Origin: Verrucomicrobiota bacterium
GTDB taxonomy: Bacteria > Verrucomicrobiota > Verrucomicrobiia > Verrucomicrobiales > V1-33
NCBI GenBank assembly: GCA_039795165.1
Contig: JBDKER010000003.1
Location: 105,220-169,219, forward strand
DNA length: 64,000 nucleotides
Direction of reading: 5' to 3'
Shown: positions 3,497 through 45,725 of the stretch, piece after piece
Layout: each line of letters opens with the position of its first letter
How positions within the stretch are numbered: the stretch's first letter is position 1
Notes under the pieces: model-generated
The model's database searches: none
The model's input: the letters and a program-made list of their open reading frames with translations, nothing else
What the model was told of the DNA's origin: nothing
Made by a program: the position numbers and the translations under genes

Positions 3497-3585
3497 GGGA
3501 TGCGGTGGACTGAGGAAGGATGATGAGTTGGGTATGGGTAGTTGGTAGCGAAAGATTGGGGTTTGGGGGGCGTTGCAGGGGAACG

Positions 3586-6531
3586 ATGCTGTTCCGTGCT
3601 GCGATATTGGTGGTGTTTCCTGCTGTGCTGGCGGCGGAGGAAGCGGCTGTGGAGCGTTTTCGTGCCGAGGTGGAGCCGATTCTGCGGGACCGCTGTCTCG
3701 AGTGTCATTCGCATGCCGGGGGGAAGATGAAGGGAGGGCTGACGCTGGATGCGCGTTCCGGGTGGGAGCAGGGGGGAGACGGGGGGCCTGCGTTGGTGCC
3801 TGGAAAGCCCGATGAGAGCCTGCTGATGAGGATGGTGCGGTGGGAGGATGAGGATCATCAGATGCCACCGGACGGAAAGCTCCCTGAGGGGGAGATTGCG
3901 GTGCTGGAGCGGTGGGTGCGGGAGGGTGCGGTGGATCCGCGGGTGGCGGAGGTGGCTGGTGGAAAGGATGGCGGCTGGTGGTCGCTGCGTCCGCTGGTGG
4001 CTCCGGCGGTGCCGGGTGCCGGGCACCCGGTGGATGTGTTCATTGGGAAGGCCCTGGCGGAGCAGGGTCTGGAATTCTCCGGGGAGGCGGGGCGGACTGC
4101 GCTGGTGCGGCGGCTTCATTTTGCGCTGCATGGATTGCCGCCGCAGTTGGAGGATGTGTCGGCGTGGCCGGAGGATGCATCCGGGGGATGGGAGGGGCTG
4201 GTGGACCGGTTGCTGGCGTCGCCTCGGTATGGCGAGCGTTGGGCGCGGCACTGGTTCGACGTGATCCATTTTGCGGATTCGCATGGATTCGAGCACGACG
4301 TGAAGCGTGAGAATGCGTGGCGGTTCCGGGACTATGTGATTGGGGCCTTGAATGGCGACACTCCGTGGCCGCGGTTTGTGCGGGAGCAGCTGGCGGCGGA
4401 TGTATTTTATCCGGAGGAGAGTCAGCTGATGGCGGCGCTTGGGTTTCTTGGTGCGGGGACCTACGACATGAGTGCGGCGGGCACGGCTCTGATGAGTTTC
4501 GAGTACCTGGACCGGGACGATCTGGTTACGCAGACGATGAGTGCCTTTGCGAGCACGACGGCCAACTGTGCGCGGTGTCATGCGCATAAGTTTGATCCGG
4601 TCAGTCAGGAAGATTACTTTGCCCTGCAGGCGGTGTTTGCCGGGATTGGGAAAGGGGACATTGAGTACGATGCGGATGCGCAGGTGGCGGCGGAGCGGAA
4701 GCGGTGGACGGCTCTGCGGGAGGCGGTGGCGCGGAGGGATGCGGGTGTGCTGTTGGCTGCCGGGCAGGAGGAATTGGTGGCCTCATGGGAGGCGGCGCGG
4801 GGAGGCGGCGTGGCGGCGTGGACTGTGCTGCGGCCCGAGGTTTTCTGGGCGGGAGACGGGGTGGTGCTGCGGCGGCTTGGTGATGAGTCCCTCCTCGCGT
4901 CCGGGGCCTTGCCCGACAGGGATGTGACGGTGGTGACGGCTGCGTCTGGGCTCAGGGAAGTCAGCGGATTCCGGCTGGATCTGCTGCCGGATGAGTCGCT
5001 TCCTGCGCAGGGCCCGGGTCGGCCAGCCAATGGGAATGTGCATTTGAGCGAGTTCGAGGTACGGTTGTTCCGGGCGGGAGCGGCGGAGCCTGAGCGGCTG
5101 GCATTGGCCGAAGCGTTTTCCGGGTTTTCGCAGGACTCGTTTGGAATAGCCGGCAGCATCGATGGGAAGGCGGAGACGTCGTGGGCGATTCATCCGCGTG
5201 AGGGGCAGCCGCATGCGGCTGTCTTTGTGCTGAGCCGACCGGTGGTGGTGGAACCGGGGGATCGGCTGCAGTTCACGTTGCGGCAACTGCAGGGCGGTGC
5301 GCATCTGCTGGGGCGGTGGAAGCTTTCGGTGGCTGGGGGGCCCAGAGAGTCGCTGACGCTGCTGCCCGACGGCGTGGTGGCGGCGCTGGCGGTGCCGCGT
5401 GGGCAGCGGAGCGAGGCGCAGCGGTTGGAGATTGCGGCTCATGTGCTTGGGGAATGGGTGGCGGTGCGCCTTGCGGGGTTGCCGGCTCCGGTGACGGTAT
5501 GGGCGGCGGGCCGGGCCGCACGGAACGAGCGGGGGTTGATCACGTATGCGGAGCCTAGGGAAATCCGGTTGCTGCGGCGGGGGGAGTTGGACAAGCCGGG
5601 GGCGGTGGTGAAACCGGGAGCGCTGTCGGCAGTGCCGGGGTTGCCGGGGCGGTTTCCGCTGGCGGACGGGGCACCTGAGGGATTGCGGCGGGCGGCGCTG
5701 GCCGACTGGCTGGTGGATCCGGGGAATCCACTGAGCTGGCGGAGCATAGTGAACCGGGTGTGGCATTATCATTTCGGGCGCGGGCTCTGTGACACGCCGG
5801 GTGATTTCGGGCGGATGGGGGGCGAGCCATCCCATCCGGAGCTGCTTGACTGGCTGGCGGTGTGGTTCCGGGATGAAGCGAAGGGGTCGTTGAAGGCCCT
5901 GCATCGGCTCATTGTAACCAGCCGGACGTGGAAGCAGGCGTCGCTGGAGCGATCGCGTGGGCTTGCGGTCGATCCGGAGAATCGGTTGCTGTGGCGGATG
6001 AACCGTCAGCGGCTGGATGCGGATGCATACCGCGATGCCGTGCTGGTGGTGAGTAATCGTCTGGATCCCGCGGTGGGTGGGCCGGGAATTGAGCATTTTG
6101 CGAAGAGTCCGGGGCCGCAGTCGACTCCGAAGCTGGATTACACGGCCTATGACTGGACGGCGCCCGGGGCGGGGAGGCGGAGCATTTACCGGGTGGTGTG
6201 GCGGGGCATGGCGGATCCATTCATGGAGGCGCTGGATTTTCCCGAGCTGGGATTGACGGCGCCGGTGCGGGGATTTTCGGCATCGCCACTGCAGTCGCTG
6301 GCGCTTTTGAACAATGAATTTGTGCTGCGGCACAGCGAGGCGCTGGGGCAGCGTGCAGAGACGGGCGGGTTGACGGCTGTGGAGCGGGTCCGGGCGATGT
6401 TCCGGCTGGCGCTCCTGCGGGAGCCGGATGCGGCTGAGTTGGAGGCCATGACGGGGCTGGGGGAGCGCCATGGGCTGGCTGCGGCGGCGAGGGTGCTCTT
6501 CAACGCGAGCGAATTTCAGTTCCTCGACTGA
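3586..6531 (+). CDS. PSCyt (planctomycete cytochrome c) / DUF1549 / DUF1553 domain protein
   Basis: The internal ATG at 3586 gives the signal peptide MLFRAAILVVFPAVLAAEEA. N-terminal haem motif CLECHSH. A second motif CARCHAHKFDP is typical of DUF1549, and the long C-terminal region is DUF1553-like (WHYHFGRGL..DFG). Confidence 0.85.
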   Translation: MLFRAAILVVFPAVLAAEEAAVERFRAEVEPILRDRCLECHSHAGGKMKGGLTLDARSGWEQGGDGGPALVPGKPDESLLMRMVRWEDEDHQMPPDGKLPEGEIAVLERWVREGAVDPRVAEVAGGKDGGWWSLRPLVAPAVPGAGHPVDVFIGKALAEQGLEFSGEAGRTALVRRLHFALHGLPPQLEDVSAWPEDASGGWEGLVDRLLASPRYGERWARHWFDVIHFADSHGFEHDVKRENAWRFRDYVIGALNGDTPWPRFVREQLAADVFYPEESQLMAALGFLGAGTYDMSAAGTALMSFEYLDRDDLVTQTMSAFASTTANCARCHAHKFDPVSQEDYFALQAVFAGIGKGDIEYDADAQVAAERKRWTALREAVARRDAGVLLAAGQEELVASWEAARGGGVAAWTVLRPEVFWAGDGVVLRRLGDESLLASGALPDRDVTVVTAASGLREVSGFRLDLLPDESLPAQGPGRPANGNVHLSEFEVRLFRAGAAEPERLALAEAFSGFSQDSFGIAGSIDGKAETSWAIHPREGQPHAAVFVLSRPVVVEPGDRLQFTLRQLQGGAHLLGRWKLSVAGGPRESLTLLPDGVVAALAVPRGQRSEAQRLEIAAHVLGEWVAVRLAGLPAPVTVWAAGRAARNERGLITYAEPREIRLLRRGELDKPGAVVKPGALSAVPGLPGRFPLADGAPEGLRRAALADWLVDPGNPLSWRSIVNRVWHYHFGRGLCDTPGDFGRMGGEPSHPELLDWLAVWFRDEAKGSLKALHRLIVTSRTWKQASLERSRGLAVDPENRLLWRMNRQRLDADAYRDAVLVVSNRLDPAVGGPGIEHFAKSPGPQSTPKLDYTAYDWTAPGAGRRSIYRVVWRGMADPFMEALDFPELGLTAPVRGFSASPLQSLALLNNEFVLRHSEALGQRAETGGLTAVERVRAMFRLALLREPDAAELEAMTGLGERHGLAAAARVLFNASEFQFLD

Positions 6532-13979: not shown

Positions 13980-15626
13980 TTACTTGAGGGGCATGAGGTT
14001 GCTTTCGCCCATGCTGCTTTCGCGGTCACCGACCTTGAGGTAGCGGTAGTAGACCTCTAGCATGAGGGTACAGAGGACGGTGCGGTAGATTTCGGCGCTG
14101 CCGCCAGCGGCGGTGGAGGTGGCGGCGGCGACTTCACCGCCTCCCTCGACCTTGTAGCTGCCGTCCTCGAGCTGGTTGGCGAGAATTTCCTTCTGGAACT
14201 GGGCATTCCATTTCTTCCATGGTTCGCCGCCCTTCTGGAAGAGGGCCTGGGTATTGTAGTACCATGTGTAGAGGTAGCAGTCAGAGTTCCAGCTGAGGGG
14301 TTCTTTTTCGAACTGATCGACGAGCCAGCGGATGCCTTTGTTGACCTTGCCGGCATTGCCTGCTCCCATGGTCTGGAGGCCGAGGAGGGCGGCGCCGGAG
14401 AGGTTCCACTGATTGTAGTGCTGGGCGCGGTCGGCGTTACCGAAGCCACCGTCGGCTGTCTGGGTGCTTTCGAGGTATTTCTCGACCTTTTTCATGGACC
14501 CGGCGAGGCCTGGGATTTTGAGATTGGTGTGTTTGGCGGCCTTGAGTGCCTGGAATTGCCAACCGGTGACGGAGAGGTCATTGCGGCCGTAGGGATCGTA
14601 GCCGATGCCGTCCTTGTAGCCCCAGGAGCCGTCCTTGGTTTGTTTTTCGATGATGATCTGCACACCGCGTTCGAAGCCTTGGCGGAGGCCGGGAAGTTCG
14701 CGTTTCCCGAGTTTGGCGAACGAGTAGACTTCGCCGAGGGCGTAGGTGGCGATGCCGTGTTCGTAGGTGCTGCGGATGCCGCTGGGGGCCTGGGAGAAGA
14801 TGCCGTTGAACTGGTTGCCGTTTTTCTGGCCGAGTTCGATGAGGAAGGTGATTCCTTTGAGGACGGTTTCTCCGTAGACTGGGGATTCCGGGGTTTCGCA
14901 GTGGCCGAGGTAGGCGAGCAGGGCCAATCCGGTCATGCCGGCGCGGTCGTTATTGCCCCATGAGCCGTCCGGGTTCTGTTTTTCCTTGAGCCATTTGAGG
15001 CCCTTCTTGACGGCGGTTTCGCATTGTTCGTTGCCGCCGTTCTCGCGCATTTTCTGGGCGCGTTCTGCGGGGGAGCAGCGGCTCTGCATGATTTTGGGGA
15101 GCGAGATGAAGCCGGCGCCTGAGCCGGGGCCCCAGCCCGAGCCAATGCCTGATCCGACGCCGCTGCCGGAACCGGTGCCGCGTCCAATGCCTTGTCCGGT
15201 GCCGAGGCCGCCGCCGCCGATGGTCATCTGGGTGAGACCGGAGAAATCGGTCATGGACGACTGGACGTCCGGGAGGGTGACGCCTGAGGATTTCGCCGAG
15301 GCGAGCTTCATTTTCGGCTGGGCGTGGCTGACGGCTCGCATCTTCTTCTGGGCGGCGTGTTTTTCGCCGCCGCCGCCGCCACCGCCGCCGCCGGGGAGGA
15401 AGTCCGGGGGTTCTTCGACGTTGTTGGAGGTCCGCCAGATGATGAAGAGGGCGAGGATGAGGAAGAGGGCGTGGACGATGATGCTGATGCTGAGGGAGCC
15501 GCCGCCGAGGCGGTGCCAGTAGCCGGTTTTGGGGCGGTCTTCGTGAGCGGGGGTGGCCTCGTAGTACTGGGGTTCCTCGTAGCCCTGGTATTCGGGTGGC
15601 GGGGGAGGTGGAGGGGGGGTGCTCAT
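13980..15626 (-). CDS. membrane-anchored protein: Pro-rich N-tail, one TM helix with S-x3-H, Gly-rich linker, prenyltransferase/squalene-cyclase-like repeat domain
   Basis: I take the ATG at 15626; the track start at 15677 is TTG. TM segment SLSISIIVHALFLILALFIIW, a G9 run and a GxGxG linker. Repeats QNPDGSWG, TKDGSWGY, TADGGFG, LEDGSY, plus the family-typical SVTGWQFQALKAA. Confidence 0.8.
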   Translation of the reverse strand: MSTPPPPPPPPEYQGYEEPQYYEATPAHEDRPKTGYWHRLGGGSLSISIIVHALFLILALFIIWRTSNNVEEPPDFLPGGGGGGGGGEKHAAQKKMRAVSHAQPKMKLASAKSSGVTLPDVQSSMTDFSGLTQMTIGGGGLGTGQGIGRGTGSGSGVGSGIGSGWGPGSGAGFISLPKIMQSRCSPAERAQKMRENGGNEQCETAVKKGLKWLKEKQNPDGSWGNNDRAGMTGLALLAYLGHCETPESPVYGETVLKGITFLIELGQKNGNQFNGIFSQAPSGIRSTYEHGIATYALGEVYSFAKLGKRELPGLRQGFERGVQIIIEKQTKDGSWGYKDGIGYDPYGRNDLSVTGWQFQALKAAKHTNLKIPGLAGSMKKVEKYLESTQTADGGFGNADRAQHYNQWNLSGAALLGLQTMGAGNAGKVNKGIRWLVDQFEKEPLSWNSDCYLYTWYYNTQALFQKGGEPWKKWNAQFQKEILANQLEDGSYKVEGGGEVAAATSTAAGGSAEIYRTVLCTLMLEVYYRYLKVGDRESSMGESNLMPLK

Positions 15627-15714
15627 GGGCGGCAGAATGGGGTTGTCCCTGTTAAGACGGATTGAAGGGGACGCCAATTAGAAAAATTGATGCGGTTTGG
15701 TACGGAAGAAGTCG

Positions 15715-15759
15715 AGACAAAAAAGGCACCGCTACGGGGGGGTGGTCCGCAGCGGTGCC
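15715..15759 (-). terminator. intrinsic terminator after the sugar phosphate isomerase gene
   Basis: On the minus strand, GGCACCGCT...AGCGGTGCC (9-bp stem with a GC-rich loop) is followed by TTTTTTGTC. Confidence 0.7.
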
Positions 15760-15790: not shown

Positions 15791-16819
<1,029 letters not shown>

Positions 16820-17004: not shown

Positions 17005-17916
17005 ATGACCGTGGCGGAACGTCCCCTCACTCACTATGCGCTGCTGTCGCTGGCGGTCGCCGTGGTCACTTTCTTTCTGAAGCTGGCCGCGTGGCGGCTG
17101 ACGGGGTCGGTCGGCCTGCTTTCCGATGCGCTGGAATCGCTGGCGAATGTGGCGGCGGCGCTGATTGCGTATGGGTCACTGGCGTTGGCGGCCCGTCCGG
17201 CTGACGAGGATCATGCGTATGGGCACACGAAGGTGGAGTATTTTGCGGGTGGCTGCGAAGGGTTGTTCATTCTCGCGGCGGCGGTGGGGATCGGGTGGAA
17301 TGCGGTGGGGCGTCTGATTGCGCCGCAGCCCCTGGCGATGGTGGGGGTGGGGCTGGTGGTATCGGTGGTGGCGTCTCTGCTGAATCTGGTGGTGGCCCGG
17401 GTGCTGTTCCGTGTGGCGAGGGCGCGGCATTCCGTGGCGCTGGAGGCGGATGCGCAGCATCTGATGACGGACGTGTGGACATCTGCGGCGGTGGTTGTTG
17501 CGGTGGGATTGGTGGTGGTGACCGGGTGGGACTGGCTGGATCCGGTGGTGGGGCTGCTGTTGACTGCGCATATCATTGTTTCCGGGGTGAAGCTGATGCA
17601 TGCGGCCATGCTGGGATTGATCGACACGGGACTGCCGGCCGAGGAACTGGCGAGGGCGCGCGGCATTCTTGAGGCATGTGGGGAACGCGGGGTGCACTGG
17701 CATGCCCTGAGGACGCGTCAGGCCGGGACGCGGCGCTTTCTTTCCGTGCATCTGCTGATGCCCGGGGAATGGACTATTGCGCGTGGTCATGCCGAGGCCG
17801 AGGAGATCGAAGCGTCTCTGCGGGCGGCGGTGCCGCGCCTGACGGTGTTCACGCATCTTGAGCCTGTTGAGGATCCGGTTTCGTGGGAGGACACGGGACT
17901 GGACCGTGGGGCCTGA
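17005..17916 (+). CDS. cation diffusion facilitator (CDF) family metal efflux transporter
   Basis: Internal ATG at 17005. Motifs GSVGLLSDALESLANV and HAYGHTKVEYF, six TM segments and a C-terminal cytoplasmic domain. Confidence 0.9.
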   Translation: MTVAERPLTHYALLSLAVAVVTFFLKLAAWRLTGSVGLLSDALESLANVAAALIAYGSLALAARPADEDHAYGHTKVEYFAGGCEGLFILAAAVGIGWNAVGRLIAPQPLAMVGVGLVVSVVASLLNLVVARVLFRVARARHSVALEADAQHLMTDVWTSAAVVVAVGLVVVTGWDWLDPVVGLLLTAHIIVSGVKLMHAAMLGLIDTGLPAEELARARGILEACGERGVHWHALRTRQAGTRRFLSVHLLMPGEWTIARGHAEAEEIEASLRAAVPRLTVFTHLEPVEDPVSWEDTGLDRGA

Positions 17917-18067
17917 GAGCGGGGCCTATTCCTGTGATGATTTCATGCCCGGTTCACCTGATGGGGCGTTCTATTCGGGCGGGCAAATTCTCATTGCAAA
18001 GAGGGGGTCGAAACGATACACCCGGCAACCTCCGAGGCAAGAACACCCGATAGCTCCCGATTCCGCC

Positions 18068-21000
18068 GTGAAAAGAAATTCAAAATTCTCCCTGCGTCTC
18101 CTCGTACCGGTCAGCGTGTTGGCTTTAGCGGCGGCGGTTCCGGCTCAGGATGCGGCGGCACCCGATGCCAAGCCGGCTGACGCGGCGGCGGGGGACAAGG
18201 CGCCTGCGCTGCCGGCCGTGGATCTGGGTGATCCCGATGCGATCATCAAGAATGGGGATGATGCCTATGCGAAGGGGGACTGGCTCAATGCGGCGGCGAA
18301 TTATTCGGCGCTCATGACGATTGCGCAGAAGACCGGGGCGACGCCTGACAAGCTGGAGCCGCTCTACTTCACGCTGGGGGCATGTCTCTTCAACATTCCG
18401 AATTACGATTTGGCCTTCAAGACATTCACGGAGTACACGCAGAAGTATCCGACTGGGAAGAACATCCGGTATGCCCAGCTGGGGCTGGCGCGCATTATGC
18501 GGGCACAGAAGAAGTGGCCGGAGGCGGTCAAGCAGTATGAGACGCTCAAGAACGAGCCGGCGCTGCGGGACGATGTGATGATCGAGTTGGCGGATTCCTA
18601 CAAGGAGAACGAGCAGAAGGACAAGGCGATCGTGCTGCTGGAGACCACGCTGGCTCCGGGGGTGAAGACATCATCCGATGTGCGGCTGGCGCTTTATCTT
18701 GTGGATCTGTATGCGGACGACAAGCCGGAGAAGGGGGTGGCGCTGCTGGACAAGGTGAAGCGGGCACCGGGGATGCGGCCGATGATTTCGGAGATCAACT
18801 TTGCGGCGCTCAAGCTGGCCGATGCGCTCATGGGAGACAACAAGCCTGAGGAGGCGCTGCCGGCCTATCAAAATCTGCGCAAGCACAAGGAAGTGGTCGA
18901 TACGCTCAAGGAGCTGCGGGATGATTATGGGCGTCTCATCAAGAGCCTGTCGGCGCGGGTTGGTCCCAAGGATCCGAATGTGATTGCCAACCAGCAGCAA
19001 CTGGCGCGGGTGAAGCAGTACGAGGCGCAGGCCAAGGCGATGATCGAGGCCCTTGAGAAGGAGCAGAACTACGATGCGGTCGTCTTTTACCGGATCGGGC
19101 GTTGTTTTGCGGCCCTTGGGAGGTTCTGGGAAGCGCGGCTGGCCTTTCAGTACGTTCTCGATAAGTTCCCCAAGTTCGAGGATGCGCCGAGTGTGCTTTA
19201 TGCTCTTACATACTGTCATTACAATCTGACGCCTGCTGATCTGACGCAGGACAACATGAAGATGGGGGAGGAGACGCAGAAGCTGTGCCGGCAGTTCCTG
19301 AGCAAGCATCCCGATCGTGAGGAGACGCAGCAGGTTGCGGAGATGCTGATTACGATTGCGACGCGGAGCGGAGATCCTGCGAAGATCAACACGGTCTACG
19401 AGGAGGTGATGGATCTGATCAAGGACTCGCCGAACAAGAGTGTGTTTCTGGCGGTGCAGGTGCAGAACTATCTTGAGCAGTATGATTTCGACAAGGCGCG
19501 GGATGCCGCCGACAAGTTTCTCGGTTCGGCGCCCGCAGACGATCCGCAGCGGGAGGCAGTGGAGTACATGCGGGGGCTGACGTGGTTCTTCAAGAATGAC
19601 TACAACGGAGCGGTGGAGGCCCTCAAGGCGTACATTGAGAAGTATCCATCGGGTCAGTACATTGCGGATGCGAAGTACCGCCGGGCGTTCCTTGTGCTGG
19701 GGGAAGAGCGGCAGAAGAAGAACAAGAAGGGGAACCCTCAGTTCCGGAATGTGATTCAGTACGCGGAGGACATCATCAAGAACCATTTTGGCACTCCATC
19801 GGTGGCGGATGCCTATGCCCTCATCGGGGATGCCTACAAGGACATGACCGGGTCCGAGATGCAGGATGCGGGACTGACGCCGGAGACTCTGGAGACGGCC
19901 ACCGCGGATGCCTATGTCAATGCGGTGAAGAATGCGGCAGCGGAGCAGGTGGCTGAGTACAGTCTAACGCAGGCGGCGCCGATGCTGAAGGCGCAGAGCC
20001 GCTGGCCTGAACTCATCACGCTGTACGAAGGTTTCCGGAAGCAGTGGCCCGAGAACCGTCAGTCGCTTGCGGCGGTCGGGGAAATCTGCACAGCGATTGT
20101 GCGGCGGAGCGACGGGGCCTTTGCGGATGAGATAGCGGCTGCGGAGGAGAAGAAGGACGAAGCGGCGGTGAAGAAATTCATGGAACAGCGGGTGGAGTCG
20201 CGGGAGAAGGCGCAGGCGGAGAGCCGGCAGTTCCTGGCCGAGACGATCACGGAAAACATCAACAATCCGCGCAAGGATGGGGTGGAGGATCTCATGCAGC
20301 AACTGGCTGTGGCGGCCATACCCAAGCGGAAGCCGGCTCCGGTGCCGCCTGCCAATCCTGCGGCGACTACGGACCCTGCGGTGAAGAGCGAACCGCCGAA
20401 GCGTCCGCCGCCGCCGACGGTGGAGGAACTGGGCAAGCCAGCTGAGGCGGAACTGGACCGTCTGCTCGGGGAGAAGGATCTGTCGGCGATCGGCAAGGCG
20501 CGGCTAGTTTATGTGAAGTCCCTGCTGTACAGGAATCTGGAGGCCAAGCAGCCCCGGAAGAAGGACGACAAGGGGCAATATATTGTCGACAATGCGCCGA
20601 AGCGTTCGGATGAGCTGATGCAGCAGCTGACGACCGAGTTTCGCCCTGAGGATTACAGTGGGCGGCTCCTCGCGGTGGTGGGCGATCATCTGCAGAAGGC
20701 GGGCGAGCGGGACAAGGCGGCGCAATGCTATAACCGGCTGCTGCAGTTCTTCCCGCAGTCGGCCTTTGTGGATTGGGGAGCGGTGGGGCTGGGTCAGATG
20801 GCCCTTGAGGACAAGGATTACGAAACGGCTCTTGCGAAGTTCAACGTGGCCACGGAGGAATTTCCGGGAATGAAGTATGGCGAGGCGCTCCTTGGGAAAT
20901 CCCGGGCGCTCATGGAGCTGAAGCGGTTTGGGGATGCCGAGAAGGATCCGGCGAACAGTCCTGAGAAGATGCTGAAGGAACTGCTTGGGGACAAGACGAC

Positions 21001-21292
21001 GCCGCCCGAGACGAAGGCGGAGGCCACTTGGCTGCTTGGGGAAGTCCGTTTTGCGCAGCAGGATTATGGTGACGCGTTCAACTATTTCCAGCGCCTCTAT
21101 CTATCATTCCTGAAGTTTCCGAAGTGGGTGGCCCGGGGTTATCTGCGGGCAGGGGAGACGAAGGAGGCCCTGCAAAAATACACGGACGCCAAGGATGTGT
21201 ACAAGGAAGCGGTCGAGACCCCGAAGATCAGCGAGCGGATCAAGGGCGAGGCTGACTTCCAGAAGATTCAGGAAAATTACCGCAAACTCTGA
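18068..21292 (+). CDS. large secreted tetratricopeptide-repeat protein with repeated CpoB/YbgF-like units
   Basis: The track ORF starts at 17858, inside the CDF gene. The in-frame GTG at 18068 gives a classic signal peptide (KRNSKFSLRLLVPVSVLALAAAVPAQD); an alternative ATG lies at 17945. TPR units of the type F..Y..KYP.G.....A.L.LA recur throughout the protein. Confidence 0.8.
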   Translation: MKRNSKFSLRLLVPVSVLALAAAVPAQDAAAPDAKPADAAAGDKAPALPAVDLGDPDAIIKNGDDAYAKGDWLNAAANYSALMTIAQKTGATPDKLEPLYFTLGACLFNIPNYDLAFKTFTEYTQKYPTGKNIRYAQLGLARIMRAQKKWPEAVKQYETLKNEPALRDDVMIELADSYKENEQKDKAIVLLETTLAPGVKTSSDVRLALYLVDLYADDKPEKGVALLDKVKRAPGMRPMISEINFAALKLADALMGDNKPEEALPAYQNLRKHKEVVDTLKELRDDYGRLIKSLSARVGPKDPNVIANQQQLARVKQYEAQAKAMIEALEKEQNYDAVVFYRIGRCFAALGRFWEARLAFQYVLDKFPKFEDAPSVLYALTYCHYNLTPADLTQDNMKMGEETQKLCRQFLSKHPDREETQQVAEMLITIATRSGDPAKINTVYEEVMDLIKDSPNKSVFLAVQVQNYLEQYDFDKARDAADKFLGSAPADDPQREAVEYMRGLTWFFKNDYNGAVEALKAYIEKYPSGQYIADAKYRRAFLVLGEERQKKNKKGNPQFRNVIQYAEDIIKNHFGTPSVADAYALIGDAYKDMTGSEMQDAGLTPETLETATADAYVNAVKNAAAEQVAEYSLTQAAPMLKAQSRWPELITLYEGFRKQWPENRQSLAAVGEICTAIVRRSDGAFADEIAAAEEKKDEAAVKKFMEQRVESREKAQAESRQFLAETITENINNPRKDGVEDLMQQLAVAAIPKRKPAPVPPANPAATTDPAVKSEPPKRPPPPTVEELGKPAEAELDRLLGEKDLSAIGKARLVYVKSLLYRNLEAKQPRKKDDKGQYIVDNAPKRSDELMQQLTTEFRPEDYSGRLLAVVGDHLQKAGERDKAAQCYNRLLQFFPQSAFVDWGAVGLGQMALEDKDYETALAKFNVATEEFPGMKYGEALLGKSRALMELKRFGDAEKDPANSPEKMLKELLGDKTTPPETKAEATWLLGEVRFAQQDYGDAFNYFQRLYLSFLKFPKWVARGYLRAGETKEALQKYTDAKDVYKEAVETPKISERIKGEADFQKIQENYRKL

Positions 21293-22230
21293 TGGCCTGT
21301 CCTTCTGTCATGAATTTCTCAATCAGATCCCTGACTGCCGCGGCTTCTCTGCTGCTGGTTCTATCTGCGGGCCCGGCGGGTGCGCAGCGGCTCTATTTCG
21401 CCAATGGGGCGGACGTCGACTGGAGCGAGGTGACTCTTTCCGGCAGCAACATTCAGAAGAAGATCCGCCAAGCGGATGGCCGGGATGGCTATGCGAGCAT
21501 TCCGGCGTCGAATGTGGCCCGGGTGGACTGGCCGTTTCCGGCCGAACTGGCGGATGCGGGCGAGGCCCTCAGCCGTGGCAATTACGATGAAGCGCTCAAG
21601 AATGCGGAGGCCGTGCGGGCGATTCACCGGAACTGGAAGGACAAGCCGGGGTCGTGGTACGTTCCTGCGACGCTCATTGCGCTCGAATGTCATATCCGGA
21701 AGAACAACAATGCGGAGGCCGACAAGATTTTTCCGGAGCTGCGCAACATGCAGCTGAGCAGTGACTACCAGAAGGGTGCCGGGATGATGGAGGCGCTTCA
21801 GCAGTTTCAGAAGGGGATGACTGGTCCGGCCCTGCAGAAGGCCAACACGCTGCTGGCGGGAACGGAAAATTCCGCGGTGCTTGCCCGACTTTACAATCTG
21901 ATTGGCGACATTCAGTTCAAGAGGGAGGCGTACAAGGAGGCCCTTGATGCCTATCTGCAGATTCCGGTGTTTTTCGGAACCCAGGCCGCTCTGCTGCCGG
22001 GTGCGGAGTTCGGGGCCGCGCGTTCCCTCATGCGGCTGCGGCGGCTGGAAGATGCCAATGTGGCACTTGATCGGATTCTCCAGCGCTACAAGGGAACGTG
22101 GGTGGAGGCACCGGCGCGCAAGGAGAAAGAAGATCTTGAGAAGGTGATTGGCGCCGGTGGGGCCGAGGCGGCCGGCAAAGAGGCTGGTGAAAAGCCGGCC
22201 GAAGGTGCGGCTCCTGAAAAAACCGAATGA
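21292..22230 (+). CDS. secreted TPR-like protein
   Basis: Its ATG overlaps the upstream stop (TGATG); an alternative start at 21310 (MNFSIRSL..) gives a signal peptide. Helical-repeat composition with a K/E/A-rich tail. Confidence 0.6.
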   Translation: MACPSVMNFSIRSLTAAASLLLVLSAGPAGAQRLYFANGADVDWSEVTLSGSNIQKKIRQADGRDGYASIPASNVARVDWPFPAELADAGEALSRGNYDEALKNAEAVRAIHRNWKDKPGSWYVPATLIALECHIRKNNNAEADKIFPELRNMQLSSDYQKGAGMMEALQQFQKGMTGPALQKANTLLAGTENSAVLARLYNLIGDIQFKREAYKEALDAYLQIPVFFGTQAALLPGAEFGAARSLMRLRRLEDANVALDRILQRYKGTWVEAPARKEKEDLEKVIGAGGAEAAGKEAGEKPAEGAAPEKTE

Positions 22231-22328
22231 TTTCCGAGAAAAAGCCTACCCAAGAGCGAATCCTGTTTCCTAGAATCTGTCAAAAGCGACCCCATCCGAA
22301 CCATCATCGAATTTCCCAAACACCTGCC

Positions 22329-23141
22329 ATGAACGCCAAACGTCTTCTGCGTCCCTTCCCCATTGCCACCGTTTTTTCCCTGCTCGCCACTCCGCTTGTG
22401 CTGGCGGCCGAGGAAGAAGCGAAGGGTGGATTCTCCGAAAAGTCTCTCTGGGACATGATTGTCCTCGGGGGGCCGGTGATGATCTTTCTTTTCCTGTTCT
22501 CGATCGGGATGGTCTGGCTGGTGATTGACGGGGTGCAGCGTTCCTCGCTCAAGCGGCTCATGCCGGAAGGCGAGCTGGAGAAGATGCGGAACTATTTCCG
22601 GGCGGGCGACTATGTGGGAGCTCACCAGAGCTGCGTGGACAATCCCTGTGCCTTCAACAATGTGGTGCGGGCTGGTCTGGTGAACGTGGGGGATGGCAAG
22701 GATGCGACCGAGGAAGCGATCCTTGCGGAGATCAACCGCGAGCAGCAGCGTCAGGCGACGCGGCTGTCCTATCTTTCCGTCATTGGGGTTTGCACGCCGA
22801 TGGTGGGTCTGATTGGAACGGTGTTCGGGATGATCGGGGCCTTCGGAGAACTGGGCAAAGGCGGAGCCACCCAGAACACGGAAGCGCTTTCCGAGAAAAT
22901 CGGCGAGGTGCTGGTGGCGACGGCATCTGGTCTGGTGATCGCGGTGCCAGCCTTCATGGGCTTCTACTTCCTGCGCAACCGTCTCCAGGGATCGGTGCAC
23001 GAGATGGAGAACGAAGTGGCCAACCTCTTCCGGAAGTTCCCGTATCATCTGGCTGAGGGAGTTCACGTGGGCGACCAGGAACTCTACGCCAATGCGCCGG
23101 CCTGGGTGGAAGGTGGCGCGGGCGACGCCGTGCAGGCCTGA
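22329..23141 (+). CDS. MotA/TolQ/ExbB proton-channel family protein
   Basis: The ATG at 22329 gives a signal-like N-terminus; an alternative ATG at 22227 overlaps the upstream stop (ATGA). Conserved core TPMVGLIGTVFGMI and GEVLVATASGLVIAVPAF. Confidence 0.9.
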   Translation: MNAKRLLRPFPIATVFSLLATPLVLAAEEEAKGGFSEKSLWDMIVLGGPVMIFLFLFSIGMVWLVIDGVQRSSLKRLMPEGELEKMRNYFRAGDYVGAHQSCVDNPCAFNNVVRAGLVNVGDGKDATEEAILAEINREQQRQATRLSYLSVIGVCTPMVGLIGTVFGMIGAFGELGKGGATQNTEALSEKIGEVLVATASGLVIAVPAFMGFYFLRNRLQGSVHEMENEVANLFRKFPYHLAEGVHVGDQELYANAPAWVEGGAGDAVQA

Positions 23142-23186: not shown

Positions 23187-23633
23187 ATGGGCGGCGGCGG
23201 CGGCGGCATGGAAAGCGGGGAGCCTGAGTTTCAGGTCGCTCCGATGATTGACGTGCTCCTTGTGATTCTCATTTTCTTCATGAGCATCACGACGGCGCAG
23301 ATTGAGAAGCTCGACAAGTCGATTGCGCTTCCGGTGGCACCTGATGCCAAGGAGCGGAAGCCTGACAAGAACCAGCGGACGGTGAACGTGCGCTGGAACA
23401 AGAACGAGCAGAAGGCCCTTATGACCTTCGGGGGGCTAGAGTGGCAGGACCGGGAGGGACTGGCCGAGGAACTCCGGAAGATTGCGGACACCATGCCGGA
23501 CGGCAAGGGGGGTACGCGACTGGAGATTCTGGTGCGGGCTGACCGGGCGACGCCTGCCAAGGAAGTGCAGGCGGCCATTGCGGTCATTGCTCAATCAACT
23601 GCTGCGGTGGCCTACGCCACGCACAACCGCTGA
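23187..23633 (+). CDS. ExbD/TolR family protein (copy 1)
   Basis: 148 aa. The TM segment with the conserved Asp is FQVAPMIDVLLVILIFFM, followed by a periplasmic domain. Confidence 0.9.
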   Translation: MGGGGGGMESGEPEFQVAPMIDVLLVILIFFMSITTAQIEKLDKSIALPVAPDAKERKPDKNQRTVNVRWNKNEQKALMTFGGLEWQDREGLAEELRKIADTMPDGKGGTRLEILVRADRATPAKEVQAAIAVIAQSTAAVAYATHNR

Positions 23634-23642
23634 ACTATCTTC

Positions 23643-24077
23643 ATGAAGCGACACCGCCATCAGAGTCAGAAGGAAGAGGAAGTGGGCTTTCAGATTGCCC
23701 CAATGATCGACGTGGTCTTTGTGATCATGCTCTTCTTCATGGTGCAGGCGGGGAACCGCCAGGTGGAGACCGAGTTGAAGATGAAGCTGCCATCGACGGA
23801 GCCAGGGGATGACGCGAGTGACACTCCGATGGAGGAACAGGTATCGGTCGATCAGGACGGGGCGATCAGCCACAATGATGAGCCGGTATCGCAGGGGGAG
23901 CTGAAGGCGAACTTCAAACGGCTGGCGCAGCAGGCGAAGGCCGAAGGAGGGACGCCGATCATTGTGACGATCACTGCGGAGTCGACGACTCCGTGGGAGA
24001 AGGTTGTGGATGTCATGAATGCGATGCAGTTTGCGGGCATTGCGAACGTTACTTTTTCAGTCAATGAGGAATTCTGA
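23643..24077 (+). CDS. ExbD/TolR family protein (copy 2)
   Basis: 144 aa, TM segment FQIAPMIDVVFVIMLFFMV. It starts 9 nt after copy 1 ends. Confidence 0.9.
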   Translation: MKRHRHQSQKEEEVGFQIAPMIDVVFVIMLFFMVQAGNRQVETELKMKLPSTEPGDDASDTPMEEQVSVDQDGAISHNDEPVSQGELKANFKRLAQQAKAEGGTPIIVTITAESTTPWEKVVDVMNAMQFAGIANVTFSVNEEF

Positions 24078-24172
24078 TGGTGGCTTCCGGTTTCTCCAGG
24101 AAAGCCCGGCAGTGGGCCGTTCCGGGATGAGCTGTATTGTCTGAGAGCACGACTAAACCTGAGGAATCTGCT

Positions 24173-25411
24173 ATGAAGCCATCCCGTTCTCCTGTTTCTC
24201 CGGAAGTGAAGCCTGTGGTTCCGCCGTCGCTGCCCGGGGATGCTTCTGCGGGTGACTTGCTGGATGGGGAGGAAGCTCCGAAGAAGGATGGGCCGTTCAT
24301 GGCCTACTGGAAGAAGATTGGCGGCGGATCGTTCACGATTTCGCTGCTGCTGCATATTCTCTTTCTGATTGCGGCGATTCTGATCGTCTGGACGACCTCG
24401 AATGCGGGGACGGAGGAGAACATTGACTTTCTGAGTGGCGGGGGAGGCGGGACGGAAGGGAACACGAAGATCAACGAGAAGCGGCGTCAGATGATGGTGA
24501 ACAAGGCTCCTGCGATGAAGATTGCGGCGAAGACGAGCGGGGCCATCACGCTGCCGGATACGTCGTCGACGCTGGCGGACATGAGCACGCTGTCGGTGAC
24601 GTCCGGGATGATGAGCGGGACGCCGGGGAGCGGTGGCGGCTTTGGTGGCGGCAAGGGAACGGGGCGTGGAACCGGGATGGGATCGGGTTTCGGGCCGGGG
24701 AGTCAGCCTGGGTTCACGGCGAACTTTCTGGGGCTGACGTCGATGGGGAACAACATCATTTTCTGCATCGACACATCTGGCAGCATGCGGACGAATCTGT
24801 CAGCGGCGGGGATTACCGCGCTGCGGCGTGAGTTGAAGAAGGTGATTGATGGGCTGCCTCCGTCGGCGCAGTTCAACATCATCTGTTTTGGTCAGAACGG
24901 GGATTTGTTCAAATCGAAGAGTGTCACGGCGACGCAGGAGATGAAGAACGAGGCGACGCGGTTCATGGAAGGGTACTATGGGGGCGGAAGTGCGGATTTC
25001 GGGCGGACGAGGACGGAGAAGTACGGGCGGGCCGGCAAGGATGCCCTTGGCATCGAGTACACGGCGATTCTCACCGAGGACATCCAGGAGCTGGCGGGAA
25101 CGGAGGGAGGCAGTCGGATTGATCTGGCGATGGTGGCGGCCTTTGAGCGGAAGCCGACGACGCTCTATGTGCTGAGCGACGGTGCACCGGGAACGCGCAT
25201 GGCGGGTGAACCGGCCATGGACAAGGATGACATCATCAAGCTGATCTACACGAAGTTCGAGAAGATGCTGGGGAAGACGTCCAAGATGCAGGTGAATACG
25301 ATTTCGATTTATTCGAATTCCGAGGAAGGACGGGAAGGGGAGAAGTTTCTGAAGAAGCTGGCGGCGAAGTTCGGGGGCAAGCACAAGGAGATCAAGCCTG
25401 ACAAGTTGTGA
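24173..25411 (+). CDS. TonB/TolA-position membrane-anchored protein: TM helix with S-x3-H, Gly-rich linker, von Willebrand factor A domain
   Basis: ATG at 24173 preceded by GAGGAA; the track start at 24137 is TTG. TM segment SFTISLLLHILFLIAAILIVW, then a G5 run and a GxGxG linker. vWA MIDAS motif IIFCIDTSGSM with a later VLSDGAPG. Confidence 0.8.
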   Translation: MKPSRSPVSPEVKPVVPPSLPGDASAGDLLDGEEAPKKDGPFMAYWKKIGGGSFTISLLLHILFLIAAILIVWTTSNAGTEENIDFLSGGGGGTEGNTKINEKRRQMMVNKAPAMKIAAKTSGAITLPDTSSTLADMSTLSVTSGMMSGTPGSGGGFGGGKGTGRGTGMGSGFGPGSQPGFTANFLGLTSMGNNIIFCIDTSGSMRTNLSAAGITALRRELKKVIDGLPPSAQFNIICFGQNGDLFKSKSVTATQEMKNEATRFMEGYYGGGSADFGRTRTEKYGRAGKDALGIEYTAILTEDIQELAGTEGGSRIDLAMVAAFERKPTTLYVLSDGAPGTRMAGEPAMDKDDIIKLIYTKFEKMLGKTSKMQVNTISIYSNSEEGREGEKFLKKLAAKFGGKHKEIKPDKL

Positions 25412-37575: not shown

Positions 37576-39012
37576 ATGAAGAAGATGGATGCTGCCGATG
37601 CTGGTTGCCGGATGAGCCGGCGGGAAGTTCTGTGGCAGGCGGGTGGTGGTTTGGCGGGTTTGGCCTTTGCGCAGATGCTGACGCGCGAGGCGGTGGCTGG
37701 CGGAGCGGAGCTGAATGGCGGCCTGCATCATCCGGCGAAGGTGAAACGGGTGATTCAGCTGTTCATGAATGGCGGGGCGAGTCCGATGGATACTTTTGAT
37801 TACAAGCCGGCTCTGGAGAAGCACCATGGGCAGATGCTGGGGCCGAAGGTGCGGCCCGAGGGGCAGACCGGCGACTGCGGAGCGGTCATGAAGAGTCCGT
37901 TTGCGTTTCAGCAGCACGGTCAGTCCGGGCGGTGGGTATCGAGTGTCTTTCCGGAGCAGGCGAAGCAGGTCGACCGGATGGCTTTCCTGATGGCCATGAC
38001 ATCGAAGACGAGTGTGCATGGACCGGCCAGCTACATGATGAACACGGGCTTTGTGCTGCCGGGTTTTCCGTGCATGGGGGCATGGATTTCGTATGCGCTG
38101 GGGAGCCTCAGTCAGAATCTTCCGGAGTTCGTGGTGCTGCCTGATGCGCGGGGTCTTCCGTACAATCAGCGGGCGAATTTCAGTGCTGGGTTTCTTCCGG
38201 CGCGGCATCAGGGAACGGTGATTCAGGCCGGGGCGGAGCAGCCGGTGCCAGATCTCTTTCCGCTGCGGAAGCGATCGTTCACTGGTGGGGATGCGGACCG
38301 CGAGGCAAGGGAGGTACTGCGGGCGATGAACGTGCGTCATGCCGCGGAGCGGCCCGGGGACACGCGGCTGGAGGCGCGGCTGGCGAGTTATGAACTGGCG
38401 GCGCAGATGCAGCTCAGTGCGCCGGAGGCCTTTGATCTTTCGCGGGAATCGGAAGTGACGCGCAGGAATTACGGGATGGAGAGGAAGGAGACTGAGGATT
38501 TCGGGCGGCGCTGTCTGCTGGCGCGGCGGCTTATTGAGCGGGGCACGCGGATGGTGCAGGTCTGGAGCGGGCCGCAGGGTGCGGCGGACAACTGGGACAA
38601 TCATGGGAACATCCAGACGGAGCTGCCGGCGATTGCGGTGAGTGTGGACCAGCCGATTGCGGCCTTGCTGGAGGATCTGGCGCAGCGCGGGCTGCTGGAC
38701 GACACGCTGGTGATCTGGACCACGGAGTTCGGGCGGACACCATTCACGCAGGGGAATGCCGGGCGTGACCACAACGGCGGGAGTTTTGTGACGTGGCTGG
38801 CAGGGGCGGGTATCCGTGCCGGGGTGTCGCATGGGAGTAGCGACGAACTGGGCGGTAAAGCGGCCGAGGGGGTGACATGGTGTTATGATCTGCACGCGAC
38901 GGTGCTGCATCTCATGGGAATCGACCACGAACGGCTCACGTTCCGGACCGCGGGGGTGGACCGGCGGCTGACTGATGTGCATGGCCATGTCATCAATGGG
39001 ATTCTGGCGTAG
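37576..39012 (+). CDS. DUF1501 (sulfatase-like) protein with a twin-arginine signal
   Basis: 478 aa, with GGGGAGGGGG upstream of the ATG. Tat motif SRREVLW. Family-typical FMNGGASPMDTFDYKP and WTTEFGRTP..GRDHN. Confidence 0.88.
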   Translation: MKKMDAADAGCRMSRREVLWQAGGGLAGLAFAQMLTREAVAGGAELNGGLHHPAKVKRVIQLFMNGGASPMDTFDYKPALEKHHGQMLGPKVRPEGQTGDCGAVMKSPFAFQQHGQSGRWVSSVFPEQAKQVDRMAFLMAMTSKTSVHGPASYMMNTGFVLPGFPCMGAWISYALGSLSQNLPEFVVLPDARGLPYNQRANFSAGFLPARHQGTVIQAGAEQPVPDLFPLRKRSFTGGDADREAREVLRAMNVRHAAERPGDTRLEARLASYELAAQMQLSAPEAFDLSRESEVTRRNYGMERKETEDFGRRCLLARRLIERGTRMVQVWSGPQGAADNWDNHGNIQTELPAIAVSVDQPIAALLEDLAQRGLLDDTLVIWTTEFGRTPFTQGNAGRDHNGGSFVTWLAGAGIRAGVSHGSSDELGGKAAEGVTWCYDLHATVLHLMGIDHERLTFRTAGVDRRLTDVHGHVINGILA

Positions 39013-44625: not shown

Positions 44626-44972
44626 CTGTGCAGTCAAGGCATCCGCGCCGGGTGCGCGCAAACGCGAAATGGAGTGGAATCTGTCAGGCAAAAAAAATGT
44701 TGCCAAGCAGGCGCGGTGCGGGCACTCTGCGGCATAAGTTTCCTCTGACGGCTGAATCCACCCTGTGGTCAGCCGGGCGTTTCCGGGAGCCGGGACTTCA
44801 GAAACTGTCCAGCTTCCGATGCGCCGGAGACATTGCCCCTGACGGGTTTCCTCCCGGGCGGATGGCTGCATCTGAATCTCCCCGTACATCTGGGCGGCGG
44901 ATGCCTGTCATTCTCCGGAACCGCAAGTTGGCCCTCTTCTTCATTTCCCCATTTCTCATTACCCCAGCAACC

Positions 44973-45725
44973 ATGGCCGGACACAATAAGTGGTCGAAGG
45001 TTAAGCACATCAAAGAGCGTGTCGACGCGAAGAAGGGCAAGGTCTTCTCGAAGATCTCGCGGGAAGTCACCATGGCGGCCCGCCTTGGTGGCCGGGATCC
45101 CGAGTTGAATCCCCGTCTGCGCACAGCCCTGCTCGCGGCGCGGGCGGCCAACATGCCTAACGACAACATTGACCGTGCCATTCGCAAGGGACTGGGGGAG
45201 CTGGAGGGGGCGATTCCGGAAGAAATCACCTATGAAGGCTACGGGCCCGGAGGGGTGGCGATGCTGGTGGAGTGCGTGACGGACAACAAGAACCGGTCAT
45301 CGGCCGATGTGCGTTCCGCCTTCAATAAGGGTGGTGGCACGATGGGAAGTGCCGGCAGCGTCGCGCATTTGTTTCTGCGGGTTGGGGAAATCCGGCTTCC
45401 CGTCGAAGCGGCGGGAGAGGATGAGGTCATGGAAGTGGCGCTTGAGGCTGGAGCCGACGACATTCAGACGGATGAGGGCGAGCACCTCGTGGTGACGGCT
45501 CCCGACAAACTGTACTCGGTGGCGGGACAACTGCGGGCCAGGGGGTGGCAAGCTACGTCGATCCGTCTCAATTACCAGCCGTCCGTGGCTGCGCCCGTCA
45601 CGGACGTGGCTGTGGCGCGGCAGATTCTGAAGCTGCTCGATTCCCTCGATGACCTTGATGACGCGCAGAACGTTTACGCGAACTTTGAATTTTCCGACGA
45701 AGTGGCGGCGCAGCTTGATGAATGA
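44973..45725 (+). CDS. YebC/PmpR family DNA-binding transcriptional regulator
   Basis: The internal ATG at 44973 gives the family-defining N-terminus MAGHNKWSKVKHIK. About 250 aa. Confidence 0.93.
   Translation: MAGHNKWSKVKHIKERVDAKKGKVFSKISREVTMAARLGGRDPELNPRLRTALLAARAANMPNDNIDRAIRKGLGELEGAIPEEITYEGYGPGGVAMLVECVTDNKNRSSADVRSAFNKGGGTMGSAGSVAHLFLRVGEIRLPVEAAGEDEVMEVALEAGADDIQTDEGEHLVVTAPDKLYSVAGQLRARGWQATSIRLNYQPSVAAPVTDVAVARQILKLLDSLDDLDDAQNVYANFEFSDEVAAQLDE

Follow-up and report, generated by a model that had tools for sequence, protein, structure and literature searches.

A cyclase-like toroid on a TolA-like membrane anchor in Verrucomicrobiota: a probable arm of ExbB/ExbD-type motors

To our knowledge, the arms known to carry the energy of 5:2 proton motors to the outer envelope were for a long time TonB and TolA alone. 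The vWA-headed periplasmic force transducers of Planctomycetes–Verrucomicrobia–Chlamydiae (PVC) bacteria were described in 2025 (Mol Biol Evol 2025, PMC12204202). AlphaFold 3 (AF3) models put the transmembrane (TM) His of these proteins on the motor, as in the cryo-electron microscopy structures of TonB and TolA, and vWA proteins with a TolR-like trans-pore helix were reported to co-occur with tolQ and no tolR (PMC12204202). TonB paralogues can share one ExbBD, as is the case for HasB of Serratia (PMC12905483). Toroid, cyclase, terpene and PA14 heads are not mentioned in PMC12204202, and our literature searches for transducers with a toroid, cyclase or PA14 head found none described. Here we analyse a 64,000-nucleotide stretch, hereafter the window, from a Verrucomicrobiota bacterium (GenBank assembly GCA_039795165.1, contig JBDKER010000003.1, positions 105,220 to 169,219). 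It encodes a protein, here called the toroid protein, in which an anchor module homologous to that of the vWA transducers carries a squalene-cyclase-like toroid. An operon 8 kb away, on the other strand, encodes an ExbB/ExbD-type motor together with a vWA-headed paralogue. The toroid protein is probably a TolA/TonB-type force-transducing arm that is coupled to a motor of this type.

An anchor module shared by two paralogues and fused to different heads

Residues ~35–195 of the toroid protein (residue numbers in the module are those of the 548-aa protein) are collinear with residues ~53–205 of the vWA paralogue, with 39% identity over 149 aa (BLASTP with composition adjustment, E=2e-22). Smith-Waterman scores were tested against 2000 shuffles, none of which reached the score of the whole module (z=45), of the TM segment (z=19) or of the segment after the Gly run (z=11.7). 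Because the post-Gly segment is significant by itself, the similarity is more than hydrophobic, TM or low-complexity composition. The alignment bears out an original prediction, made from the DNA letters without database searches, that both proteins carry one collinear module; the S-x3-H of the TM helix, the Gly run, the K/R-rich stretch, the TLPD motif and the GxGxG linker are all present. A hidden Markov model (HMM) built from the two copies found no third copy in the window. The TM helix comprises residues 44–67 in the AlphaFold 2 (AF2) model and has an N-in topology. In the AF2 model of the vWA paralogue, residues 110–121 of the K/R-rich stretch form a short helix; in the model of the toroid protein the equivalent stretch is disordered.

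To define the extent of the family, the module profile was searched against 1.84 billion cluster representatives. This retrieved 373 representatives at E<=1e-3 and 168 at E<=1e-10; a word-indexed search with the same profile gave 38 short, domain-less fragments only. Among the top 150, 94 had a head long enough to classify, and all but one of these fell into four groups: PA14-like heads (35 representatives, with Pfam PA14 matches down to 7e-8), two groups of vWA heads (17 and 35 representatives) that are related to each other (hhalign probability 96%), and toroid heads (6 representatives). Across public data the module is thus joined to heads of three folds: vWA, PA14-like and toroid. Toroid and vWA heads share no comparable relationship (hhalign probability 0.3%). 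The toroid representatives are few because this group is well conserved; with the full-length toroid protein as query, 1,650 representatives of clusters at 90% identity matched. Among these, the best 120 all have the same architecture, and their taxon names are all verrucomicrobial, including Prosthecobacter and Phragmitibacter. The toroid and PA14-like heads are new head variants of the vWA-type force transducers described in 2025.

Conservation within the module is concentrated in a few positions. The TM His is invariant in the family modules (105/105 and 137/137), across head classes. The residue four positions before it is Ser in 85% of modules and otherwise Ala, and Ser or Ala at −4 and Ala or Gly at +7 occur in ~98–100%. 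No acidic residue is found in the TM helix of 133 of the 137 modules, the window protein included. Beyond the membrane, the Phe of the DF motif (99%), the GGG that follows (~85%), and the Leu (83%) and Pro (97%) of the LP motif are kept across the family. Such a pattern would be expected if the helix packs onto a partner and short strands dock just beyond the membrane, and not in a passive anchor. The modules do not cluster by head class, with identities within and between classes all at 0.31–0.33. Cross-paralogue identity declines with lineage distance (r=0.6–0.7); it is 0.42 for the pair in the window, a value equalled or exceeded by 19 of 42 vWA orthologs from other lineages.

The original prediction placed the Gly run at about 15363–15395 and suggested that its length could vary. 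The run itself is there, at slightly narrower coordinates (Table 1). The suggested variability did not hold: the window protein and 25 related proteins, down to ~62% full-length identity, all have a run of 9, and the codons of same-length relatives differ synonymously (GGC/GGT). Runs of 6 or 3 residues appear in more distant clades. Since a length of 9 is kept in relatives despite these GGC/GGT changes, it is under selection rather than variable.

Compared with the vWA transducers of PMC12204202, the toroid protein has a homologous anchor, with a TM His, a disordered linker and a box-like strand, and belongs to a family associated with the TPR-tolQ-tolR-tolR cassette. The vWA protein of the window is one of these transducers, and the shared module profile retrieves both proteins. 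The differences are a toroid in place of the vWA/MIDAS (metal ion-dependent adhesion site) head, and a toroid gene that lies off the motor operon.

With TonB the toroid protein shares a three-part layout, in which a TM helix with S-x3-H is followed by a long flexible linker and a globular head, and as among TonB paralogues there are several arms per genome, some of them away from motor genes. It differs from TonB in lacking TonB_C, in having a spacer rich in Gly, Ser and Lys, and in that its Pro-rich stretch is cytoplasmic. No Pfam match to TonB_C or TolA_C was found in the toroid protein. The similarity to TolA is closer: hhalign aligned the module with E. coli TolA domain I (residues 14–52, sequence checked against PDB 9k49_H) with a probability of 72% and E=3.3e-5, and both have an S-x3-H TM helix that ends in W and is followed by an acidic stretch and then a Gly run. 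Helical domain II and the TolA C-terminal domain are, in contrast, absent from the toroid protein. The DF-PGGG motif lies ~10 residues after the TM helix, a distance also reported for the D-box of TonB and the R-box of TolA (PMC12905483), and by analogy it may be equivalent to these boxes.

The motor proteins encoded in the window also score best as TolQ and TolR, and their operon includes a CpoB/BamD-like TPR protein, as in the Tol system. Because of these matches, and because the alignment with TonB covers 11 TM columns only, the anchor and the system look more TolA/Tol-like than TonB/Ton-like. In this the original prediction, which drew its analogy from TonB paralogues, is corrected. Differences from Tol are that no tolB or pal adjoins the cassette, and that the SHLS motif has A/G in place of its L (H+7) and V/I in place of its S (H+11). 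No linked TonB-dependent receptor occurs in the window.

The motor cassette and the position of the toroid gene

The operon in the window has the order TPR-TPR-ExbB-ExbD-ExbD-vWA (Table 1), and the vWA protein fills a slot that is held elsewhere by the toroid type. The vWA paralogue has a DxSxS MIDAS motif whose residues D212, S214 and S216 are invariant. Its head adopts a vWA fold in the AF2 model, and Foldseek matches it to the vWA domain of ITIH1 (2.4e-9) and to the bacterial vWA protein 4fx5 (1.2e-6).

In other lineages, toroid-headed proteins are residents of this cassette. Two loci (L020 and L021) have the order TPR-TPR-ExbB-ExbD-ExbD-toroid, and in a 6.4-Mb genome (L019, OZ260079.1) two tandem toroid-headed genes follow three ExbD genes. 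Metagenomes were sampled with a degenerate DNA pattern for [VI]DF[LV]PGGGG, which yielded 120 stretches, 17 of them encoding the module; this sample is biased by the pattern. ExbD genes are directly upstream and on the same strand in 16 of the 17 module-bearing loci, and in these 16 the ExbB and TPR genes are present on every contig of sufficient length. All 13 recognisable heads in the module-bearing metagenome loci are toroids, and the operon-resident heads from the metagenomes and from L019–L021 are 38–52% identical to the window head over ~370 aa. The only conserved neighbourhood is the six-gene cassette of TPR, TPR, ExbB, ExbD, ExbD and module protein. Despite the bias of the sample, the association of the toroid-headed protein with ExbB-ExbD-ExbD is unambiguous. 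The module is found beside motors; its three head folds and its residence in the cassette uphold the proposal of one anchor with interchangeable heads tied to ExbB/ExbD-type motors.

In L019 (8001–12425) the three ExbD genes are followed by two tandem transducers of 637 aa, and in L021 (7712–8980) the toroid-type cassette is directly followed by a second ExbB-ExbD pair. Some lineages carry several motors side by side.

Closer to the window the arrangement differs. A scan of a genome collection with a three-sequence alignment found nine loci, mostly from close relatives, of which L004 and L005 are contigs of metagenome-assembled genomes near-identical to the window. The 8-kb distance between toroid gene and operon is kept only in the close relatives L004–L008. 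In what is probably a single genome, the paralogues sit on two separate megabase contigs of one assembly, with 46x and 48x coverage. Since toroid relatives occupy the cassette slot elsewhere and the vWA protein occupies it here, the window copy belongs to a motor-linked family but is itself an orphan. This state is peculiar to the lineage of the window, and the toroid type is an operon resident in many other lineages. The PA14-type members (L013, L018) and the members of the second vWA group (L017, L024) that could be seen in context are orphans as well. A gene of ~140–150 aa with no Pfam match lies just upstream of orphan toroid- or PA14-type genes in three unrelated loci (L002:9421–9873, L013:9267–9689 and L001:9375–9830); in L001 it is on the opposite strand.

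The features of the toroid gene and of the motor operon are collected in Table 1. The ATG is the probable start codon because a 98%-identical protein in the JGI database (P0001) has 548 aa. The gene is flanked by two strong hairpin and U-run structures and by unrelated neighbours (a 3-keto-disaccharide hydrolase, a xylose-isomerase-like TIM barrel and a CDF transporter) and is therefore monocistronic, with its own terminator-like hairpin and no exbBD beside it, as had been proposed. The hairpin of the upstream gene isolates it transcriptionally. A simple terminator scan missed both hairpins, as their loops exceed its 8-nt limit, and folding confirmed both. No sigma-70-type promoter site was found in a promoter scan.

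Table 1 Coordinates of the toroid gene, its flanking hairpins and the motor operon in the window
Feature	Position	Strand	Details
Longest open reading frame (ORF)	13980–15677	−	TTG start, 565 aa; toroid-headed anchor-module protein
Probable coding sequence	13980–15626	−	ATG at 15626, 548 aa plus stop
Pro-rich cytoplasmic N-terminal tail, aa 1–35	15522–15626	−	Ortholog lengths vary; low pLDDT (AF2 confidence)
Juxtamembrane W37-x3-GGG and single TM helix, aa 36–67	15426–15521	−	S48-x3-H52-x6-A59; His52 codon 15471–15473
DFLP motif and G9 run, aa 75–87	15366–15404	−	G9 = aa 79–87; Gly run 15366–15392
K/R-rich stretch and conserved (V/I)TLPD, aa 88–125	15252–15365	−	TLPD = aa 117–120; aligns with vWA paralogue
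Disordered Gly/Ser-rich (GxGxG) linker, aa 126–177	15096–15251	−	pLDDT <50 over residues 75–175
Single (alpha/alpha)6 toroid head, aa 178–531	14034–15095	−	Four QW-like repeats, no DxDD
Intrinsic-terminator-like hairpin and U-run, 3' of stop codon	13880–13925	−	Folding: −29.7 kcal/mol, z=−7.5
Terminator-like hairpin and U-run of upstream gene (15791–16819)	15719–15759	−	Folding: −32.3 kcal/mol, z=−5.3
Two secreted TPR proteins	17858–21292, 21292–22230	+	1144 aa and 312 aa; Pfam TPR_6, YfiO-like; in every cassette examined
ExbB/TolQ-like	22227–23141	+	Pfam MotA_ExbB 1.5e-25; best NCBIfam match TolQ
Two different ExbD/TolR-like genes	23187–23633, 23643–24077	+	Pfam ExbD 1.8e-14 and 3e-23; best NCBIfam match TolR
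vWA-headed paralogue, resident transducer of the operon	24137–25411	+	Module ~24302–24736; His73 codon 24353–24355

The remainder of the window shows several further features. The plus strand has a GC skew of 0.23 across positions 1–64000 with no sign change, and at third codon positions (G−C)/(G+C) is +0.40 in plus-strand genes and −0.60 (coding sense) in minus-strand genes. This strand asymmetry appears well above usual replication skews, and the window as a whole appears to fall within a single replichore. Gene types typical of PVC bacteria occur at 3520–6531 and 37576–39012 (PSCyt1/PSCyt2/PSD1 with DUF1549/DUF1553, and DUF1501), in keeping with the verrucomicrobial origin to which the near-identical contigs L004 and L005 point. 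Two ORFs have long N-terminal extensions, Rho (671 aa, 45765–47780, Pfam domain from about residue 304) and YebC/TACO1 (365 aa, 44628–45725, Pfam domain from about residue 120); these extensions may be genuine or may stem from wrongly placed start codons in the longest ORF.

The toroid head and alternative explanations

The head is all-helical in the AF2 model, with pLDDT mostly >90. Pfam SQHop_cyclase_C matches it at 1e-10 (41.7 bits, cut-off 26.1), and Pfam Prenyltrans reaches 18.7 bits, under its cut-off of 26.5. Foldseek places it among squalene-hopene and class II cyclase-like toroids (1sqc, 8paj, 6sbe; E 5e-6 to 4e-4, TM-score up to 0.65), with which it shares the (alpha/alpha)6 fold and the QW repeats; squalene-hopene cyclase 1sqc matches at E=4.7e-6, and the single-domain cyclase-like proteins 8paj and 8pak have target-normalised TM-scores of 0.62–0.65. 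These results agree with the prenyltransferase/squalene-cyclase-type repeats recognised originally at the C-terminus. MstE, the sugar-binding AprG, GH76, glucoamylase and the thioester-containing domain (TED) of complement C3 also match the head. Among 73 orthologs, C243-E244, Y288-E289-H290, D350, W356-Q357 and W455-Y456-Y457 are examples of invariant residues, and their density argues for a specific pocket. C243, H290 and D350 are among them; the Zn site of the prenyltransferase beta subunit uses Asp, Cys and His. A TED-like thioester (CGEQ) function was rejected on sequence, the nearest stretch being GHCETP. A 360-aa toroid-type protein that lacks the anchor module is encoded just upstream of the toroid-type cassette in L020 (1004–2086). 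It is 27% identical to the window head (E=6e-23) and could be a soluble or secreted relative.

The SQHop_cyclase_C match, the best Foldseek hits and the names of the family in databases ('terpene cyclase/mutase', 'prenyltransferase/squalene oxidase repeat') suggest a true terpene cyclase or prenyltransferase with membrane isoprenoids as substrates (hopanoid or sterol-like chemistry), which the helix would simply hold at the membrane. We consider this very improbable. Profile comparison confines the sequence likeness to squalene-hopene cyclase and other cyclases in PDB to the QW repeat, overall identity is 11–16%, and a motif scan that recovered the four QW-like motifs found no D-x-D-[DE] anywhere in the protein. 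The NCBIfam cyclase models score 31–37 bits against cut-offs of 323–851. The head is also one toroid and not a two-domain cyclase body, its predicted periplasmic location is away from the cytoplasmic isoprenoid diphosphates, and its likeness to cyclases is no broader than to the AprG, GH76, glucoamylase and complement toroids. With QW-only similarity, no DxDD and cyclase models an order of magnitude below their cut-offs, the head is a cyclase-type ring but not a credible cyclase. The shared module could instead be no more than a lineage-specific anchor and spacer that holds assorted periplasmic domains at the inner membrane, with the toroid protein working as a tethered enzyme or binding protein that needs no motor, an explanation we regard as unlikely although it accommodates the monocistronic, motor-unlinked state of the window gene and of most close orthologs, the equally unlinked PA14-type and second vWA-type members, and the enzyme-like density of invariant polar residues in the head. 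A plain anchor would need neither an invariant His and conserved small residues on one face of its TM helix nor two strictly conserved juxtamembrane motifs, and it does not account for toroid- and vWA-headed members recurring as the last gene of ExbB-ExbD-ExbD cassettes. Least probable, and hardly credible, is that the toroid protein is a part of the stator, inserted in the pentamer as an ExbD/TolR/MotB-like plug. A precedent exists in the second vWA class, whose TolR-like trans-pore helix pairs with TolQ alone (PMC12204202), but the TM helix carries a TonB/TolA-type His and, in 133 of 137 family members, no acidic residue such as the conserved Asp of these plugs, and the cassettes already hold two ExbD genes.

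Several observations weigh against a motor-coupled arm and lower our confidence in it. No ExbB/ExbD gene lies within 10 kb of the toroid gene in L001, L002, L010 and L012, and the gene is unlinked to a motor in most genomes of its own clade. The many invariant polar residues of the head would also fit an enzyme that works independently of a motor. A profile search with the module found no match among Pfam families and PDB chains. The hhalign match to E. coli TonB has a probability of 1%, and of the SHLS motif the family keeps S and H only. The two pairs compared for co-adaptation or gene conversion of anchors within a genome (n=2) disagree: in P0015 and P0295, which are probably a same-genome pair, the TM helices are 73% identical to each other and 55–59% identical to orthologs (hand count), and the pair in the window has the opposite pattern. 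Coupling of the toroid protein to an ExbB/ExbD-type motor nonetheless remains our preferred explanation.

Proposed mechanism and implications

We infer the docking on the motor, the motor used and the partner of the head as follows. The toroid protein is predicted to be a bitopic inner-membrane protein with a cytoplasmic N-terminus, one TM helix, ~110 disordered residues and a periplasmic toroid. With its S48, H52 and A59 face, the TM helix would dock to the periphery of a TolQ/ExbB pentamer, and the DF-PGGG and TLPD strands just beyond the membrane would contact the TolR/ExbD dimer. The Gly/Ser linker, which is long enough to span the periplasm, could then bring the head to the peptidoglycan or the outer membrane. 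There the conserved central pocket of the toroid may hold a partner, a glycan or an envelope protein, and proton flow through the motor would pull on or reposition it. The PA14 heads and the sugar-binding toroid hint, by analogy and speculatively, at a glycan.

As an orphan, the toroid arm of the window most likely uses the same type of motor in trans, as TonB paralogues do. It and the vWA arm most likely compete for, or take turns on, one kind of stator. This motor may be the one 8 kb away, as first proposed, or one encoded at some other place in the genome. It is possible, if somewhat doubtful, that in Verrucomicrobiota and relatives the cassette works as a Tol-like machine of the envelope whose arm has acquired a new head at least three times (toroid, vWA and PA14-like), and that several arms per cell, from the operon and from orphan genes, alternate on one stator as a proton-driven multi-tool that pulls on different envelope glycans or proteins. 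If so, the toroid would be the first (alpha/alpha)6 ring to serve as the business end of a 5:2 motor, and binding or catalysis by the toroid might be gated by mechanical force.

The anchor is a portable module that occurs on at least three unrelated head folds, and a squalene-cyclase-like toroid is a frequent operon-resident head. This re-annotates a large family (1,650 matching cluster representatives, of which the 120 best were inspected) that is now labelled 'prenyltransferase' or 'terpene cyclase'. The signature W-x3-GG-x5-S-x3-H ... DF-PGGG ... LP can be used to find further arms. The window and its relatives offer a concrete system for how several arms share one stator, and bear on how PVC bacteria use motor power in place of the canonical Tol-Pal system.

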